Source of the DNA: a virus
Reading direction: 5' to 3' (one strand)
DNA: 64,000 nt
IMG/VR virus record: IMGVR_UViG_3300025834_000005
Of the stretch, positions 4,211-61,105 are shown piece after piece. The translations under genes were made by a program, and so were the position numbers. The notes below the pieces were generated by a model. That model did no database searches. It saw only the letters and a list, made by a program, of their open reading frames with translations, and had not been told where the DNA came from. Within the stretch, counting starts at the first letter, position 1. Every line of letters starts with the position of its first letter.

Positions 4211-4753
4211 ATGGAGAAGTATACAGATTTTAAAGTGGCTTATGCGACATACTATAAAAGGGTATTTAGCTTTATTATGATCAGAACGAATAACAATCGG
4301 GAAGTTTCGGAAGAAATTGCAAACGATGTATTTGTAAAGGTAGCTGAATTTATGGATATCTTTGACCCTGAAAAAGCTAAGTTTTTGACTTGGTTGTTAA
4401 ACATAACCAAAAACAAAATCGTCGATCATTATCGCTTCTTAAATACGTATCAGAAAAAACGTGAGGTCTGTATATCTGATTTTTGTGATGAAAGTGGCAA
4501 AGAATTTATGCAAGTCATTGCAAGTGAGGACAGTGAATCAATTGAAAATGTTGAGTTACGTTCCAAAATCGACAAAGCATTTGATATCTTGAAAGATATG
4601 GAAAAAGAAGTTGCTGATCTTTATATTAAACAGGATAAGCAATACAAAGAAATTGCTGAAATGTTGAGTATCCCAATCGGTTCGGTTAAGGGTTATTTAA
4701 ACAGAGCGAGAATGAAAATACAAATATATCTAAAAGATGTATATGTAAACTAA
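4211..4753 (+). CDS. ECF-type sigma-70 family factor, copy 2 (180 aa)
   Basis: Region 2-like LTWLLNITKNKIVDHYR and region 4 HTH YKEIAEMLSIPIGSVKGYLNRARMKI; TACCTTTG box 28 nt upstream. Confidence 0.85.
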   Translation: MEKYTDFKVAYATYYKRVFSFIMIRTNNNREVSEEIANDVFVKVAEFMDIFDPEKAKFLTWLLNITKNKIVDHYRFLNTYQKKREVCISDFCDESGKEFMQVIASEDSESIENVELRSKIDKAFDILKDMEKEVADLYIKQDKQYKEIAEMLSIPIGSVKGYLNRARMKIQIYLKDVYVN

Positions 4754-9037: not shown

Positions 9038-9499
9038 ATGAGATCAATAGAATATCTTGTTCAATTATTTCCTGATAAAACATGTAGAGAGATTCTGGCT
9101 ATTCAAACAGCAGATAAGCTCGAAGACGACATGAAGTATGAAAAGGTTAACAAAAAGAAGTTGAAGTTCATCGAAGATCATAATACCAATGGTGGATATT
9201 ATTGTGGTCGGTTCGGCAGTGACCAACGTTATTTCTATCGAGTTTTCAATATGAGAATGGAAGGCTCTGATATCTATATGGACGTTGAAACTTTGGTAGT
9301 CTTTATGAATCAGGAAGGCGTTAAACATCAGGTAACAAAAACTGGCGATGTTAGCGTGGAAAGGCGTACCAAAGTATGGCAGAAGGAAGACACTTACTGT
9401 TTGGAAAACAGGGAACGAGTAACAAAAAAAGAATGGGATGCTATTAATGATTATGTTAATAATCTGGCAAAGTTCTGGGATCATATCAAAAAAGTGTAA
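9038..9499 (+). CDS. hypothetical protein (153 aa)
   Basis: ORF track; promoter 8993. Confidence 0.75.
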   Translation: MRSIEYLVQLFPDKTCREILAIQTADKLEDDMKYEKVNKKKLKFIEDHNTNGGYYCGRFGSDQRYFYRVFNMRMEGSDIYMDVETLVVFMNQEGVKHQVTKTGDVSVERRTKVWQKEDTYCLENRERVTKKEWDAINDYVNNLAKFWDHIKKV

Positions 9500-9524
9500 C
9501 CTTTTTGATTCATTTACGTATAAC
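9495..9524 (+). promoter_or_regulatory. ECF-sigma-type promoter (TGTAAC-N16-CGTATAAC repeat)
   Basis: Exact N16; next ATG 9540. Confidence 0.7.
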
Positions 9525-9539
9525 ATAGAAACAAAAGCC

Positions 9540-9749
9540 ATGAGAGAAATAACATTCGAAGTAACATTGAGGTTCAGTTCAAAGGTAACAGCTGACGAGG
9601 AAATTCTTGAAGTTCAGCAAAACATATTGGATGCGATTGTTAGACAAGCTGAAAGTGCAATTCTCGCACCATTGGATAGTGATGCATTCACAACAAATAT
9701 TAAAGTGTTTGAACCGTTAACACAGGTTGCAGTGTCACACACTTTTTAA
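9540..9749 (+). CDS. hypothetical protein (69 aa)
   Basis: ORF track trimmed to MREITFEV after promoter 9495. Confidence 0.65.
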   Translation: MREITFEVTLRFSSKVTADEEILEVQQNILDAIVRQAESAILAPLDSDAFTTNIKVFEPLTQVAVSHTF

Positions 9750-13905: not shown

Positions 13906-13935
13906 TGTAACCTTTTTAAAGTATTTACGTATAAC
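13906..13935 (+). promoter_or_regulatory. ECF-sigma-type promoter (TGTAAC-N16-CGTATAAC repeat)
   Basis: Exact N16; no credible ORF for about 500 nt downstream. Confidence 0.7.
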
Positions 13936-13939
13936 ATAG

Positions 13940-14455
13940 AAACAAAGCATAAACAATTAAAACTTTCATCATGAAAAAGAATTAATAAAAATATTCAGAT
14001 AGGGCTTATCAATCTCAGGTAGGTAAAGCGGAATAAGGCTGAACATCTATATAAGAAAAGCGAAAGCAAACATCCGCACAGGTTTGCAATTAGCAGTGGA
14101 CGCATTAAAAGGAAGCGTACATGAAAAACATTGGAGGAAATATATAACAAGTACTTCAAATTCCTTTTCTTTAATCGTGACGTTTTTGAAAAGAGTGAGT
14201 AGTTTCGGATGCGGTTAGAGTAATAAGTTAAACGAAAGCGATGATCTTGAGGGAGCAAATAAAAAACTCCAAGTGATTAGTTCATAGCATGTTAACGTAA
14301 TTTGTTTTGGGTTTATTCAGGTACGTTGACGCTCACTTAAGATCATTTACAATATTATATTACCTGTATGGGTAATAAACCCGATAAATAACCTGTATGG
14401 GTTTATTTACCGATTAAAAATAAATCATTTGAATTTCAAGTTTGTTTGTTTGTTT
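13940..14455 (+). ncRNA. promoter-driven non-coding transcript of about 0.5 kb, class unknown
   Basis: Canonical promoter 13906 followed only by a 4-codon ORF; terminator at 14456; internal 9-bp hairpin 14374-14407 and direct repeat ACCTGTATGGGT x2. Confidence 0.4.
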
Positions 14456-14487
14456 AAAAGGTTACATTAATTTGTAACCTTTTTTTT
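14456..14487 (+). terminator. terminator whose 3' arm is the -35 element
   Basis: AAAAGGTTACA / TGTAACCTTTT plus T8. Confidence 0.7.
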
Positions 14488-26640: not shown

Positions 26641-27441
26641 ATGGATAAACAGAGTAAAATTTTTGAAACTACGGATTACAGCAAGTTTAAAACTTTGGTT
26701 GGTAATCGTGAAGTTAACAAATTGCATGTGAAAAAGCTTAAAGAATCCTTTGAGCGGCAATACATGAAAACGATTATCACCGTCAATGAATTCTTTGAGA
26801 TTATTGATGGACAGCATAGATTAGCTGCTGCTATAGCTTTGAAGGCTGAAAAGGGTATCGTTCTTCCAATCTATTATATTATCATGGTTGGCTATGGTTT
26901 GAAGCAAGTTCAAGCCTTGAATAATGATAATAAGAACTGGAATAAGAAAGATTATTTGAAAACATTTTGTGATCAAGATATTGAGAGCTACAATATGTAT
27001 AAGGAATTTAAGGAATTATTTCCTATGTTTGGTGATGTTGTATGTGAAATGTTGTTAACTGATAAGCTTTCACATACCAAAAACAGTACTGATTCCACAT
27101 TGATTTCGAAAACGAATAAAGATGGCTCATACACTACAAATGATTTTATCGAAGGTAATTTAGTAATACCTGACTATGCTAAGTCTATTGCTAATGCGAA
27201 TAAGATATTAACAATAAAACCTTATTATACCGATGGCTATATGAAACCTCAATTTGTTAGGGCTATGCTTGGTGTGATGAAAAACCCTGATTATTCTCAT
27301 GATAGAATGCTTAATAGGTTAGCTGTTAAATCGACATCTTTGAGAAACTGTACAAAGGTATCTGAATACAGGGATTTGATCGATTATGTTTACAACTACG
27401 ACATGAGGGCTTTTAACAAGCTTAATTTAAAATCATACTAA
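26641..27441 (+). CDS. ParB/DndB-like DGQHR-motif protein (266 aa)
   Basis: FEIIDGQHRLAAAIAL motif; track TTG start trimmed to ATG 26641. Confidence 0.55.
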   Translation: MDKQSKIFETTDYSKFKTLVGNREVNKLHVKKLKESFERQYMKTIITVNEFFEIIDGQHRLAAAIALKAEKGIVLPIYYIIMVGYGLKQVQALNNDNKNWNKKDYLKTFCDQDIESYNMYKEFKELFPMFGDVVCEMLLTDKLSHTKNSTDSTLISKTNKDGSYTTNDFIEGNLVIPDYAKSIANANKILTIKPYYTDGYMKPQFVRAMLGVMKNPDYSHDRMLNRLAVKSTSLRNCTKVSEYRDLIDYVYNYDMRAFNKLNLKSY

Positions 27442-44788: not shown

Positions 44789-44936
44789 TTGGTAATCGTG
44801 GTGAGGAAATATATTTGACCTACCGCAAGAAGCAAAGTAATAGTACGATGGGGAGTTAGGACAATTAAGCAACTGATATTTTGTAAGAAAACAGGCGAGT
44901 AAGCTAACTTTAAAAATAAGAACCCTACCAATTAAT
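44784..44936 (+). ncRNA. structured element closed by an 11-bp long-range stem
   Basis: ATTAATTGGTA (44784-44794) / TACCAATTAAT (44926-44936); begins at RNA ligase stop codon. Confidence 0.25.
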
Positions 44937-44938
44937 TT

Positions 44939-44968
44939 TGTAACCTTTTTTATTTTATAACGTATAAC
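44939..44968 (+). promoter_or_regulatory. ECF-sigma-type promoter (TGTAAC-N16-CGTATAAC repeat)
   Basis: Exact N16; next ATG 44982. Confidence 0.7.
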
Positions 44969-44981
44969 GAATAAAAAAACA

Positions 44982-45248
44982 ATGATAACATTAGAAAGAT
45001 TAGAAGAAATTTTTGACGAGAGTTCATCAAGACCAAAGGATGTTGATCGGCATATGAAAGCTTTGACTTTGTTAAGAGATCGAATACCTTATGATGTTTG
45101 TGAGAGCATTATCATTGGCGCAGATCATGATAAAGTTTTTCTATGTGCCGTTGAATATGCGCTACCATACATGAGCGAGGATGACGCAAGGGCATTATCC
45201 AATGGTAGTTGCTTTATTGAGGATGATTGTTTCTCAATGTTTGTTTAA
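44982..45248 (+). CDS. hypothetical protein (88 aa)
   Basis: ORF track; promoter 44939. Confidence 0.7.
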   Translation: MITLERLEEIFDESSSRPKDVDRHMKALTLLRDRIPYDVCESIIIGADHDKVFLCAVEYALPYMSEDDARALSNGSCFIEDDCFSMFV

Positions 45249-45252
45249 ATAC

Positions 45253-45282
45253 TGTAACCTTTTATTTTCATTTACGTATAAG
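45253..45282 (+). promoter_or_regulatory. ECF-sigma-type promoter, variant -10 CGTATAAG
   Basis: Exact N16; followed by tRNA-like RNA, not an ORF. Confidence 0.6.
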
Positions 45283-45286
45283 TAAT

Positions 45287-45439
45287 GGGAGTGCTGCTCT
45301 GGAGTGGTAGCGATATGTAATATGTCTAATAGCCGCCTTCATAGGTTGCGGTTTCGGGTACAAACCGATATAAGTTAGTTGATTAATACGCCTAATGGCA
45401 ATTTACAGATTTCGTAAGGTTCGATTCCCTACACTTTCA
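45287..45439 (+). ncRNA. tRNA-like / tmRNA-like RNA with G3:U70 acceptor stem
   Basis: GGGAGTG / CACTTTC 7-bp acceptor (G2-U, G3-U), A discriminator, T arm TAAGG-TTCGATT-CCCTA, D-like GCTC-TGGAGTGG-TAGC, about 90-nt insert where the anticodon arm should be; promoter 45253. Confidence 0.5.
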
Positions 45440-45456
45440 CTAAAAAAAATATTGAT

Positions 45457-45654
45457 ATGGTAAACAGAGAAGAAATTGATGGAATGCTTTTCATTGCTCA
45501 AACAACTTATTACGTATATCGTAATGAGGAAGATTTGATGGCTGATAATGAGCCATTTCTCACAACATCAAATACAGATGCTTTTGAAGCTTGTAAGAAT
45601 AGAGCTAAGGAAGGTAAACTTAATATTAATAACAATCAAAATGGCAAAGACTGA
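45457..45654 (+). CDS. hypothetical protein (65 aa)
   Basis: ORF track. Confidence 0.55.
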   Translation: MVNREEIDGMLFIAQTTYYVYRNEEDLMADNEPFLTTSNTDAFEACKNRAKEGKLNINNNQNGKD

Positions 45655-45916
45655 CAATACAAAAGTAGGTGATACAGTATTTTCGTTGGATAACGGATGG
45701 GTTGTTGAATGGGAAATCATAGCCGTAAATCCGAAAAATGAAAGATTCTTTATCATCCAAAATAAAGAATTAGATCAGGTTATTAACCAAGTTCATTGGA
45801 AAACATTGGAGTATGGCGGTGATACAAAAAACTTTTACAGCTTAACTAAGAATGATCTATTGGATAGATTTAAAGAATATACCGACTATGTAATTAAACA
45901 TATCAACATCAAATGA
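45641..45916 (+). CDS. hypothetical protein (91 aa)
   Basis: ORF track trimmed to MAKTDNTKVGD. Confidence 0.6.
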   Translation: MAKTDNTKVGDTVFSLDNGWVVEWEIIAVNPKNERFFIIQNKELDQVINQVHWKTLEYGGDTKNFYSLTKNDLLDRFKEYTDYVIKHINIK

Positions 45917-46176
45917 AAATAGATAAGGTTATAAAAGGATTTACATACAGGTATACCGCTCATTTGATACCCAATACAATGACAGCAAATGTCACGTATT
46001 TCTCATGGGACGAACCTATTGAGTGCCCGATTACTCCCGACTTCAAATACATCATGTTACCTGATAATTGCGTGAAATTTATATCAGGCTATGGCGATGT
46101 AAGAGTGAAGAAATTAAAAATGAATTATCGCCAACAATACGATGCTAAAGATTACAACAAAAACTGTAACCTTTAG
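45913..46176 (+). CDS. hypothetical protein (87 aa)
   Basis: ORF track; ATGA overlap. Confidence 0.65.
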   Translation: MKIDKVIKGFTYRYTAHLIPNTMTANVTYFSWDEPIECPITPDFKYIMLPDNCVKFISGYGDVRVKKLKMNYRQQYDAKDYNKNCNL

Positions 46177-53110: not shown

Positions 53111-53713
53111 ATGAAAACAATCGCACAGTTAAGAAACAACTTAAGGTTTCACCCAGAGGAAATTAACAGTTCAATCAAATACTTCAAAGAGTTAAAGATT
53201 GATTGGAACGTTTATCTACCATCAAAAGGTTTTAATTTACAACGAGATTTCGTATGGACTCTCGATCAGAAACGTGAGATCATATGGTCTATTCTAATGA
53301 AAAGGCTTATTCCACGTATGGCAGTCATTTGTAATCATGATATGGTATATCAGATCATTGACGGTAAACAAAGATTATCAGCTATGATCGACTTTGTTGA
53401 TAACAAATATACTTTGCTGATTGATGGTAACGAGTACTATTTTTGTGACTTACCATTGGATTATCAACAGACTATCAGTAATTATTACTTTGCTTATTAC
53501 ATCGTGCATGAAGAATCATTAAGGTTTCCAATAACAGACGAAGATAAAATTGACTGGTTTAAGTTTATCAATTTTGCTGGCACTCCGCAAGAGTCTGAAC
53601 ATATGGATAAATTAACAGCTGTGAAAAAAGCGTGTGCTTACGGTGATCATTTTAACGCTGATAATGAGTGTCCTAAATTAATGAGTTGTTTTGATTGCGA
53701 TAAATTCAGATAA
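53111..53713 (+). CDS. DUF262 (ParB-like, GmrSD N-domain type) protein, copy 1 (200 aa)
   Basis: NLQRDFVW and IIDGKQRLSAMIDF motifs; C-term WFKFINFAGTPQ shared with copy 2. Confidence 0.65.
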   Translation: MKTIAQLRNNLRFHPEEINSSIKYFKELKIDWNVYLPSKGFNLQRDFVWTLDQKREIIWSILMKRLIPRMAVICNHDMVYQIIDGKQRLSAMIDFVDNKYTLLIDGNEYYFCDLPLDYQQTISNYYFAYYIVHEESLRFPITDEDKIDWFKFINFAGTPQESEHMDKLTAVKKACAYGDHFNADNECPKLMSCFDCDKFR

Positions 53714-53979: not shown

Positions 53980-54351
53980 ATGATAAAAAATTTCGAGGAA
54001 ATTACAGTTGGGTTGACAGCAAGGGAATTAAACATAATACCTATTTTTATTAAATTCATTTCGGATTACGATCAATCTAATCCGATTAAGGCATCTAAAA
54101 TTGTTGCAGCACTGGACGAGATTTTAGAGGCTCAGGGGTTGGGAATTAAGATGAATGAGGTGAGAGTACGTAAATGCTCCAATCACATCAGAACCAATTC
54201 TCTGCTACCTTTAATCGCAACGTCTAAAGGATATTTTGTGTCTTATGATCAGGACGTTATTGCCATGCAAATTCAGAGTTTATATGAACGTGCCGAAGCT
54301 GTAAATGCGTCGGCTGATGGATTATCACTATTTGTGAATAATAATAAATAA
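53980..54351 (+). CDS. hypothetical protein (123 aa)
   Basis: ORF track; promoter 53933. Confidence 0.7.
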   Translation: MIKNFEEITVGLTARELNIIPIFIKFISDYDQSNPIKASKIVAALDEILEAQGLGIKMNEVRVRKCSNHIRTNSLLPLIATSKGYFVSYDQDVIAMQIQSLYERAEAVNASADGLSLFVNNNK

Positions 54352-54908
54352 TGAATATTCTCAAACTATCACAGATTCGTAAGCCATTAAACTTTAAGGT
54401 TCAAATGGGAATCAGCATGGATATACATGATATGATTGATGGTCATTATGGGGACGTTATGGATTTTGATGTTTATTTACCGACAAAAGGAATGAATCTA
54501 CAACGTCCTTTGGTTTGGTCTGATGAACAGAAACAGGAATTTGTTATCTCAGTACTGAAAGGTATTGAGGTAGCATCTATTTCTGTCATAATTTATAGGG
54601 ATGATACCTTGAATAGTAATCATACTCGTCTCATTAAAGTTATTGATGGTAAGCAGAGAATAACAACGCTTATGTCCTTCATTCAAAATGAGTTTCCATT
54701 AGTCATTAATGGCGATAAGTATTTCTATAACGATATGGAAGATATAGCTAAGTCTGTTCTCAGATCATTTTGGTTTAGGAGTAACAGAGTTTATGAATAC
54801 CCTGACAAACTGATTTCAGATGATGATAAGATCGCTTGGTTTGAAATGATTAACTTTTCTGGAACACCACAAGATGTTGCTCACTTAAATAATTTGAAAA
54901 AAGTGTAA
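54351..54908 (+). CDS. DUF262 (ParB-like) protein, copy 2 (185 aa)
   Basis: NLQRPLVW and VIDGKQRITTLMSF; WFEMINFSGTPQ. Confidence 0.65.
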   Translation: MNILKLSQIRKPLNFKVQMGISMDIHDMIDGHYGDVMDFDVYLPTKGMNLQRPLVWSDEQKQEFVISVLKGIEVASISVIIYRDDTLNSNHTRLIKVIDGKQRITTLMSFIQNEFPLVINGDKYFYNDMEDIAKSVLRSFWFRSNRVYEYPDKLISDDDKIAWFEMINFSGTPQDVAHLNNLKKV

Positions 54909-60105: not shown

Positions 60106-60434
60106 TGAAATCATTAAGAAACTTCGAATCAAAATATCTCACAGCCGAAATAATCGAATATATAAAAAGTGAAGGCTTCGAGCATCATGGAAATGATAGC
60201 TATTGTTTTAAGGAAACTGACTTAGAATGGGTTGATTTTTGTTATTTCAAACATATCGACGAATGCCAAACATTTTGCATAAATGTCTACATATTCGATA
60301 ACATGATCGGTGTTGATGTTGACTATAATTGTGGTGGAAATCTTGCCACATATACTTGGAAGTTTGTTCATTATGACTTCGAAAAAGCATATGATCATAT
60401 GGTTGATATTGTTAAAAGATATGTTAGCCAATGA
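60105..60434 (+). CDS. hypothetical protein (109 aa)
   Basis: ORF track. Confidence 0.65.
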   Translation: MKSLRNFESKYLTAEIIEYIKSEGFEHHGNDSYCFKETDLEWVDFCYFKHIDECQTFCINVYIFDNMIGVDVDYNCGGNLATYTWKFVHYDFEKAYDHMVDIVKRYVSQ

Positions 60435-61105
60435 ATAATATGCTTGACGATGTTATCGAAATAAAAGATCACAGGCTGAACCCTTTGGATATCATAATAC
60501 TGATTTTATCTATATATGTGCTTGGCGTTGTGGTTATTGACACATTATGGGTGTTACCAGCAGAAATATCGAGACTATTAAGTTATATCGACAACATAAT
60601 ATGCGTTGTGTTTTTTTATGACTTCGTAACAAACTTTCGTAAAGCGAAGAATAAATTAAAGTTTATGCGATTAGGTTGGATTGATCTACTATCGTGTATA
60701 CCTATGGTTGATTACTTACGTGCTGGTAGAATGCTTAGACTTATACGATTAATTCGTGTTGTGAGAGCATTTAAGACCACCAATCATTTAGTTAATCACA
60801 TCTTTGCCAATAAATCAAAAGGTGCTCTAACGTCTGTCTTTGTCGTAGCAATGCTATTTGTATTATTCTCAGCGATAGCGATTCTTGAAGTTGAGAACGA
60901 CCCTAATAGTAACATAAAAACTGCCGAGGATGCTATTTGGTGGGCGTATGTTACTGTTACAACTGTTGGGTATGGTGATAAATTTCCAGTAACAACAGAG
61001 GGCAGAGTTATTGCAGCAGCTTTAATGACCGTAGGCGTAGGCTTATTCGGTACATTCACCGCATATATTTCATCATTATTTGTAACTAATAGTAAAAATC
61101 CGTAA
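60431..61105 (+). CDS. compact voltage-gated-type potassium channel (224 aa)
   Basis: Selectivity filter TVTTVGYGD; S4-like RAGRMLRLIRLIRVVRAFK; S3-like GWIDLLSCIP; hydrophobic S1, S2, S5, S6. Confidence 0.85.
   Translation: MNNMLDDVIEIKDHRLNPLDIIILILSIYVLGVVVIDTLWVLPAEISRLLSYIDNIICVVFFYDFVTNFRKAKNKLKFMRLGWIDLLSCIPMVDYLRAGRMLRLIRLIRVVRAFKTTNHLVNHIFANKSKGALTSVFVVAMLFVLFSAIAILEVENDPNSNIKTAEDAIWWAYVTVTTVGYGDKFPVTTEGRVIAAALMTVGVGLFGTFTAYISSLFVTNSKNP

Follow-up and report, generated by a model that had tools for sequence, protein, structure and literature searches.

The locus and its promoter

The stretch of DNA analysed here, called the window below, comprises 64,000 nucleotides of IMG/VR virus record IMGVR_UViG_3300025834_000005 and is part of a metagenomic (jumbo) phage genome of ~328 kb. 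At positions 45287-45439 lies an element which, judged from its comparison with homologs in other contigs, very probably belongs to a real family of structured, tRNA-like non-coding RNAs (ncRNAs). This RNA matches no described RNA family, and we report a previously undescribed family of phage ncRNAs. The features of the locus, all on the + strand, are the following.

45253-45281, +, phage promoter of the extracytoplasmic function (ECF)-sigma type, TGTAAC-N16-CGTATAA (motif of 47 copies; two ECF-type sigma genes in the window)
45287-45439, +, predicted tRNA-like RNA of 153 nt (comparative analysis; covariance model R1, 134-163 bits across five homologs)
45287-45293, +, acceptor stem, 5' strand GGGAGUG, pairing with 45432-45438 (7 bp, 100% of cells paired)
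45294-45311, +, D arm, stem CUG/UAG with an invariant 11-nt loop CUCUGGAGUGG
45312, +, G26-like base
45313-45320, +, P2, 5' strand AUAUGUAA, extended analogue of the anticodon stem (partner 45403-45410)
between P2 and P2', +, 2x2 internal loop
45323-45326, +, P2', UGUC with partner GGCA at 45397-45400 (RNAalifold prediction on five sequences)
45332-45352, +, hairpin H2, GCCGCC/UGCGGU with a 9-nt loop (compensatory changes in four of six pairs)
45354-45368, +, hairpin H3, UCGG-GUACAAA-CCGA (compensatory changes in three of four pairs; 100% paired)
45374-45396, +, hairpin H4, GUUAG at 45374-78 with CUAAU at 45392-96 (one-sided changes only)
45392-45402, +, invariant block CUAAUGGCAAU, identical in all five homologs
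45411-45414, +, variable-loop analogue UUCG (manual alignment)
45415-45431, +, T arm, UAAGG-UUCGAUU-CCCUA (loop invariant; one A.C mismatch in the window)
45432-45439, +, acceptor stem, 3' strand CACUUUC, pairing with 45287-93, and position 73 (A45439)
45457-45654, +, first downstream ORF (65 aa), with no promoter of its own

The promoter reads TGTAACCTTTTATTTTCATTTACGTATAA (parts TGTAACCTTT-N9-TTTACGTATAA) and belongs to a motif that occurs 47 times in the window, between 2032 and 61899 and always on the + strand, versus 0 sites expected by chance. Most of the 47 copies are followed by (C)ATAGAAA and, ~16 nt later, by an ATG. The copy at 45253 is an outlier to this usual context, being followed by GTAATGGGAGTG, with the next ATG-initiated ORF 175 nt away and no ORF of at least 40 aa between 45248 and 45457 on either strand. 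A preliminary description, made from the letters of the window, had placed here a repeat promoter driving an RNA rather than an ORF, and this arrangement is indeed what we observe. ECF promoters, such as those of B. subtilis sigma-W, combine a -35 AAC, a 16-nt spacer and a -10 CGT. Since the phage motif has this layout, transcription is predicted to start at or next to G45287; the sequence GGGAGTG (45287-93) begins five bases past the promoter end. The two sigma-70 genes of the ECF type (Sigma70_r2 and r4) lie at 971-1522 and 4211-4750, and their presence together with a repeated promoter of ECF geometry suggests that more than 45 small one-gene transcription units may share one phage sigma factor.

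The promoter list contains no further site between 45281 and 46165. Lacking a promoter, the ORF at 45457-45654 is probably transcribed together with the RNA in the window phage, an arrangement shared only with the closest relative (contig L002, see below). A protein search with the 65-aa product returned only itself, in 13 contigs of the same ~328-kb phage. ARAGORN finds no tRNA gene in the 64-kb window.

Conservation and covariation of the fold

Taken alone, the window sequence gives a weak signal. The T-loop motif GGTTCRANTCC occurs once in the window versus 0.15 times expected, and at least once in 11 of 100 shuffled sequences. With default settings, with or without introns, ARAGORN reports no tRNA or tmRNA in the window, and Rfam 15 yields nothing at gathering scores across the window and nothing at E <= 10 in 45200-45500, the tRNA family RF00005 included; both searches, which the preliminary description had named as a check, were therefore negative. 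When introns were allowed and the threshold was set at 80%, ARAGORN forced a "tRNA-Ile with 64-nt intron" with an implausible anticodon stem, using the same acceptor, D and T arms as the preliminary description. Because these single-sequence statistics are weak, the case was decided by comparison with other sequences.

Five distinct sequences were compared: the window copy, L002 from IMG/VR, and three much more divergent copies detected by scans with D-loop/T-loop patterns, namely L076 and L083 in JGI metagenomes and L098 in IMG/VR. One such pattern, ATGTCTAA..CTAATGGCAAT, gave 39 matches, among them one new member (L098). Another, TAATGGCAA-N(12-32)-GTTCGATTCC, corresponds to the ordinary D-loop-to-T-loop spacing of tRNAs and matched at least 120 phage tRNAs. 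All five sequences share the features that define the family, namely the invariant blocks and the acceptor, D, P2, H2, H3 and T helices. Compared with L002, the window is 95.4% identical in the RNA element, 61% in the downstream ORF, 53% in the spacer and 35% upstream. The element differs at seven positions, two of which are transversions in loops; the five others, all located in helices, are transitions after which a wobble or an isosteric pair remains, G3:U70 for example becoming G3:C70.

We found the RNA element in IMG/VR contigs in which both the RNA ligase and the DNA ligase share 79% identity with those of the window; relatives at 64% and ~50% have other gene orders and give no match to the RNA with nhmmer or the covariance model. 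In the flanks of L076, L083 and L098, we found unrelated genes and no protein in common with the window; a conserved neighbouring protein was looked for among the homolog contigs and none was found. The RNA is followed by an A-rich spacer and then the ORF in the window and L002, and by U-rich tracts in L076, L083 and L098. The L098 copy is preceded by a Bacteroidota-type TAnnTTTG motif.

A covariance model based on the five sequences, R1, gives the members 134-163 bits and everything else in 0.59 Mb of phage loci 24 bits or less; phage tRNAs reach 10-24 bits, through their acceptor, D and T parts only. R1 detects no second copy in the window and no homolog in the 145-kb Cellulophaga phage phi17:2, where it picks up tRNAs and a tRNA remnant at no more than 24 bits. 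This phage and phi4:1 are the closest cultured relatives by DNA ligase (46.5% amino-acid identity), and the hosts of the family are probably uncultured, aquatic (marine or freshwater) bacteria of the Bacteroidota type. A blastn search with two family members against 50,697 GenBank phages gave no match, nor did one with the 3-kb region, and when bacteria and archaea were scanned once with a motif, at one genome for each of 185,579 species, the 14 matches were all false. Literature searches, which did not extend to the 10,006 unnamed candidate viral RNAs catalogued in PMC10690425, brought up no account of such an RNA.

The five sequences were aligned by hand, with gaps written as N. The strands of the helices are as follows, by copy.

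Acceptor stem: window GGGAGUG/CACUUUC; L076 AAAAGUG/CACUUUU; L083 AUAAGUG/CACUUGU; L098 CCAAGUG/CACUUGG
D stem: window (G)CUG/UAG(C); L076 GCUA/UAGC; L083 GCUA/UAGC; L098 GUUA/UAAC
P2: window AUAUGUAA/UUACAGAU; L076 AUAUGCGA/UCGCAGAU; L083 AUAGGGAA/UUCUUGAA; L098 AUAGGUGA/UCAUCGAA
H2: window GCCGCC/UGCGGU; L076 GUCGCC/GGCGGU; L083 GUUUGC/GCAAGC; L098 GCAUGG/UUAUGC
H3: window UCGG/CCGA; L076 UCAG/CUGA; L083 GUGG/CCAU; L098 GUGG/CCAC
T stem: window UAAGG/CCCUA; L076 UUGGG/CCUGA; L083 UCGGG/CCCGA; L098 UUGGG/CCUAA

The middle part of this alignment was adjusted by eye to an expected structure, towards which the pair counts that follow lean. In the first model, 89.9% of the cells are paired versus 38-48% in controls with slid strands, 15 of 40 pairs have changed on both sides, and the covariation score is 0.53 versus 0.06-0.12. 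Applied to the same hand alignment, RNAalifold arrives independently at the acceptor, D, P2, H2, H3 and T helices and adds two helices made of invariant blocks. The model extended in this way has 97.6% of its cells paired (34-50% in slid controls) and a covariation score of 0.52 versus 0.07-0.10; 15 of its 42 pairs have changed on both sides, a number reached by none of 500 shuffles (8.4 +/- 1.8). The acceptor and T stems read in the preliminary description are thus supported by covariation across the five homologs. A local hairpin H1 (45312-17 with 45321-26), which is the choice of single-sequence folding and of RNAalifold on a MAFFT alignment, was rejected, as it shows no covariation and three broken cells versus three doubly changed pairs for P2.

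The fold that emerges joins a tRNA-like half to a distal domain. As the preliminary description had it, the acceptor stem pairs 45287-93 with 45432-38, in the order G-C, G-U, G-U, A-U, G-C, U-A and G-C in the window, and the G:U pairs found throughout the structure identify the + strand as the RNA strand. Compensatory changes affect each of acceptor pairs 1-3, and pairs 4-7 (AGUG/CACU) are invariant. The D stem directly abuts the acceptor stem, the U8-N9 linker being absent; in the relatives it reads GCUA/UAGC or GUUA/UAAC, with one compensatory pair (C:G to U:A in L098). Its invariant loop lies in what had been noted as a GG-containing, D-like segment. The T arm is likewise present with its single A.C mismatch, and its stem varies at pair 2 (AU, UG, CG and UA) and pair 3 (A.C, AU, GU and GC). 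In the place of the variable loop, L083 and L098 have 10 nt able to form a mini-hairpin. No CCA is encoded.

The ~90 nt that had been described as replacing the anticodon arm resolve into P2, P2' and three hairpins. P2 has double changes at three pairs, with U:G and G:U intermediates in L002, and contains an invariant A45315.G45408 mismatch. Both strands of P2' are invariant, so that its pairing is a prediction to which covariation does not apply. P2', H2, H3 and H4 would meet in a four-way junction at the place of the anticodon loop. The sequence of H2 is wholly different in L083 (GUUUGC/GCAAGC) and L098 (GCAUGG/UUAUGC). For H4, an alternative register (P3) pairs GUUAG at 45374-78 with CUAAU at 45326-30, and the five sequences cannot separate the two. 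A hairpin of 6 bp with a 7-nt loop at 45349-45367, singled out in the preliminary description, can form in the window but is broken in L002 and absent from L083 and L098; it was dropped, since it is not conserved and competes with the covarying H2 and H3, and H3 takes its place. The blocks identical in all five sequences are AGUG/CACU, the D loop CUCUGGAGUGG, AUAUGUCUAA, CUAAUGGCAAU and the T loop UUCGAUU. Among them, CUAAUGGCAAU resembles a tRNA D loop, and the two D-loop-like elements of the RNA may compete for the T loop.

Decoding, charging and tagging

The RNA has the acceptor/T stack of 7+5 pairs, the T loop UUCGAUU and the GG-bearing D loop CUCUGGAGUGG that are typical of tRNAs. Nonetheless, it is no decoding tRNA, having neither a 7-nt anticodon loop nor a U33: P2 runs at least three covarying pairs past pair 31:39, ~70 nt of structured RNA lie beyond, and a U33 in the loop of H2 or H3 is not kept across the family.

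Nor is the RNA, as a family, an alanine acceptor. The preliminary description had recognised an alanine identity in the pair G3:U70 and an A discriminator. The A is present in the window (A45439), but only two of the five variants have it and three have U; pair 3:70 is G:U in the window only, G:C in L002 and A:U in L076, L083 and L098. Likewise, pair 1:72 runs through GC/AU/CG and pair 2:71 through GU/AU/UG/CG. Since position 73 drifts, as do pairs 1-3, selection probably maintains something other than an aminoacylation identity.

The idea of a miniature tmRNA, also put forward in the preliminary description, found as little support. Rfam tmRNA models and the ARAGORN tmRNA search are negative, the latter (option -m) even at the 80% threshold when run on the element, and L083 shows only a 15-nt T-loop match to the Rfam tmRNA models (13.6 bits versus a threshold of 47). 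The GCC...TAA frame proposed as a tag lies within the covarying H2 and H3, and between the window and L076 all four of its changes are non-synonymous with base pairing kept. Each copy contains a short open frame ending in UAA just past H3; the two subgroups encode unrelated peptides (AAFIGCGFGYKPI versus ALKASVVVQIHN), and no short frame has a C terminus of the ...LAA type or a hydrophobic, Ala-rich one. The frames opened by a conserved AUG in AUAUGUCUAA extend over 6 to 19 codons and have only Met-Ser-(Asn/Lys)-Ser in common. With no conserved peptide in any frame and with non-synonymous changes that preserve structure, the RNA is non-coding. SmpB is not among the 14 Pfam families returned by a general scan of the 69 ORFs of the window (64 of ~328 kb); this protein would come from the host anyway.

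Known tRNA-mimicking ncRNAs include tmRNA, YrlA, plant-virus tRNA-like structures and mascRNA, and each of these earlier cases has informed how cells read the shape of tRNA. As in the tRNA-like domain and helix 2 of tmRNA (SsrA), the ends form a 7-bp acceptor beside a T arm, a D-loop analogue carries GG, an anticodon is lacking, and the anticodon arm gives way to a long helix with a structured domain beyond it. The phage RNA differs from tmRNA by a real D stem, by the lack of a conserved G3:U70, discriminator or tag frame, and by a size that is half that of the smallest usual tmRNA. In YrlA, the Ro60-binding helix is built from the 5' and 3' ends, with the tRNA-like part located internally, whereas the RNA described here has its ends in the acceptor stem and its non-tRNA module distal. 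The two are alike as non-decoding ncRNAs that mimic the acceptor, T and D arms, with YrlA thought to engage tRNA-handling enzymes by this module and to bind protein through the other (for YrlA as a bacterial Y RNA with a tRNA-like module, see Chen et al. 2014, PMC4201824). The element has no match among the Y-RNA and YrlA families of Rfam, and Ro60/TROVE is not among the families listed in the general scan of the 69 ORFs.

Another comparison is with RNAs C and D (species 1/2) of phage T4, which are also phage-encoded, stable ncRNAs of ~120-140 nt, RNA C having a canonical T arm and an acceptor-like stem at its end. The T4 RNAs lie in a tRNA cluster and are released by cleavage from a tRNA precursor transcript, whereas the present RNA is driven by a promoter of its own and the 64-kb window contains no tRNA gene. 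With R1, rnaC scores 21 bits, as ordinary tRNAs do, and only over its 3' 92 nt; no homology to rnaC or rnaD was detected in sequence or distal domain, and a blastn search of the GenBank phages, T4 among them, with the element gave no match. The function of both T4 RNAs is still unknown (PMC3014915, PMC9697503). Finally, canonical and class II tRNAs share the 7/5 acceptor/T stack, UUCGAUU, the D-loop GG, a variable region that is either 4 nt long or arm-like and, in the anticodon stem, the first five pairs, but the stem of the phage RNA is longer by at least seven pairs and ends in a multi-hairpin junction, and the RNA has no U8-N9 and no encoded CCA.

Possible function, rival explanations and further observations

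The explanation that we consider somewhat better than an even bet, taken as a whole chain, is that the RNA acts in trans as a non-decoding tRNA mimic, sequestering or recruiting a tRNA-recognising protein during infection. In the window phage, G1 or an adjacent base would be the start site of host RNA polymerase carrying a phage sigma factor of the ECF type, and the acceptor/T minihelix together with the D-T elbow would fold into a compact, stable and nuclease-resistant L-shape. This shape could dock host tRNA-handling proteins, among which RNase P or RNase Z, the CCA-adding enzyme and T-loop modifiers are candidates, with neither decoding nor a conserved aminoacylation identity being involved. 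The distal domain would be the effector. The invariance of acceptor pairs 4-7, of both elbow loops and of the distal blocks is the reason for taking them as recognition surfaces. A candidate partner would be a host tRNA-targeting defence enzyme, or an enzyme of tRNA repair or modification.

Several points weigh against this explanation. The size of 153 nt, the ends, the processing and the addition of CCA are all predicted from sequence. The comparison relies on five sequences from about three lineages and on the hand fitting mentioned above, and the minimum-energy fold of the window copy is not more stable than those of shuffled sequences (z = +0.77). The absent linker between acceptor and D stems is unlike a tRNA. 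Position 73 is complementary to position -1 in all five sequences (U:A twice, A:U three times), so the terminal helix of an unprocessed transcript could reach 8-12 bp and may be a plain closing stem of that length, not a processed acceptor end. No partner protein or target was found. An antisense target was considered and rejected, the complement of an invariant 12-mer occurring 15 times in the window versus 11.9 expected, which is no enrichment. Finally, in the window and L002 no terminator follows the RNA and an ORF starts 17 nt downstream, so that the RNA may have a role in cis in these two phages.

This last observation underlies the main rival, a cis-acting 5' leader or tRNA-like punctuation for the ORFs at 45457-46176, serving as a processing signal for RNase P/Z/E or as a stabiliser, which we judge unlikely. 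In both phages the downstream ORF is indeed promoterless and closely follows the element, but spacer and ORF diverge (53% and 61%) around an RNA that is 95% identical. Downstream of L076, L083 and L098 the sequence is unrelated and U-rich, and the next ORF is ~150-210 nt off in L083 and L098. With three of the five homologs in unrelated contexts, it is the RNA alone that is conserved, which speaks against a mere 5' untranslated region; a punctuation signal would not need an invariant distal domain of 70 nt either. Another role considered is that of a dedicated substrate or guide of a phage RNA-repair module (Rnl2-like ligase, HAD and NUDIX), e.g. as a sacrificial look-alike that is cut and resealed; a substrate of the ligase had also been supposed in the preliminary description. 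The Rnl2-like ligase (PF09414, phrog_548) is encoded 0.5 kb upstream of the RNA, and HAD_SAK_1 and NUDIX domains are encoded in the window. However, linkage to the ligase is limited to the window and its 79%-identical relative L002, with a spacing of 0.5 versus 2.2 kb; no ORF in the examined flanks of L076, L083 and L098 resembles any ORF of the window, L002 or L043, the ligase included, and the RNA lacks an anticodon loop, the usual target of cleavage. We regard this role as improbable.

The same ligase might instead join the halves of a pre-tRNA with a novel ~80-nt intron in its anticodon loop, an idea in keeping with the tRNA geometry of the acceptor, D and T arms and the first five P2 pairs, with the 4-nt variable loop and with the tRNA-plus-intron forced by relaxed ARAGORN. 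Yet a 7-nt loop with U33 cannot be obtained by any excision; the 5-bp stem is followed by U/C/G and then A/G, paired to the 3' side with compensatory changes. There is no bulge-helix-bulge, a group I intron would need a longer insert, no Rfam intron matches, and the 8-9 linker is missing. Moreover, the ARAGORN solution needs the 80% threshold and its implausible anticodon stem, and the ligase is unlinked to the RNA in L083 and L098, making such a precursor very improbable. Slighter still is the chance of a miniature tmRNA-like molecule that is charged with alanine via G3:U70 and A73, enters stalled ribosomes and adds the tag AAFIGCGFGYKPI. The window copy, alone in having both determinants, the short UAA-ending frame of each copy and the layout recalling the tRNA-like domain and helix 2 of tmRNA are in its favour; it is largely refuted by G3:U70 occurring in one of five copies, the varying discriminator, the negative detectors, the tag frame located in covarying helices, a real D stem that tmRNA does not have, and the absence of SmpB from the families of the ORF scan. 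As for a decaying tRNA pseudogene or a chance resemblance, the weak single-sequence statistics would fit, and phage tRNA clusters do hold remnants, e.g. in phi17:2 (contig L260, 41299-41441). Covariation refutes it and leaves it practically no probability, as the element is 95% conserved amid flanks of 35-61%, with 15 compensatory pairs and invariant loop and junction blocks.

Within the preferred explanation of a trans-acting mimic, a bolder version, which we hold to be speculative and rather doubtful, would make the RNA the founding member of a class of phage tRNA mimics in which the anticodon loop is swapped for an effector domain. It would mature as tRNAs do, by 5' and 3' trimming, CCA addition and T-loop modification, and would serve as a non-cleavable decoy or adaptor, an RNA anti-defence factor directed for instance at a defence system of the anticodon-nuclease type. 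If true, this decoy reading possibly hints at the role of RNAs C and D, the 50-year-old orphans of T4. The family adds to the known tRNA mimics a design in which the top half of a tRNA is intact and the anticodon stem is elongated, with a conserved domain of several hairpins attached to it. Being small, strongly conserved, backed by covariation and easy to synthesise, it makes processing and CCA addition, the binder of the distal domain and protection against defence directly testable. Besides, tRNA finders and Rfam miss such RNAs, and "intergenic" phage regions past orphan promoters are worth scanning.

Two other promoters of the window are followed by non-coding sequence. Past the copy at 18627-18655, ~90 nt of non-coding sequence (window 18627-18747) replace the usual CATAGAAAC leader and ATG; the ends AAATGGTT ... 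GAACCATT can pair, the next promoter lies at 18748, and this stretch may be another small phage RNA. The promoter at 13906-13934 precedes ~540 nt without a long ORF (to 14472), with a direct repeat AACCTGTATGGGT... near 14362-14410; this region, 13906-14472, is a candidate large non-coding RNA or regulatory region, with no Rfam match in the window. Past the RNA ligase gene lies an intergenic region of 190 nt (44789-44981) with an inverted repeat AATTGGTA ... TACCAATT at its bounds. Since the same repeat encloses only ~20 nt in L002, ~100 nt have been inserted in the window. Among the protein-coding genes, HAD_SAK_1 (the 'Swiss Army Knife' RNA-repair HAD domain) was assigned to one of the 69 ORFs (E = 1.3e-5) and a NUDIX domain is encoded as well, three ORFs (26641-27438, 53111-53710 and 54351-54905) have GmrSD_N/DndB-like (ParB-type nuclease) domains, and one (60431-61102) encodes an ion-channel protein (Ion_trans).

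Unusual tRNA-like sequences were also noticed in other phages. An unrelated phage contig, L027, carries within a tRNA cluster a 121-nt tRNA-like gene (9481-9601, - strand). Its acceptor reads GGAGUGG/CCACUCC, its D and T arms are normal, and its anticodon/variable region is enlarged by ~50 nt; at 22 bits with R1, this oversized tRNA-like RNA is not a member of the family described here. In phi17:2, just past the annotated tRNA cluster, an unannotated region (L260 41299-41441, record 91299-91441) contains two T-arm-like hairpins ~110 nt apart, AGAG-TTCGATT-CTCT and ACAGG-TTCGATT-CCTGT, which are probably tRNA remnants or an unannotated tRNA-like RNA.

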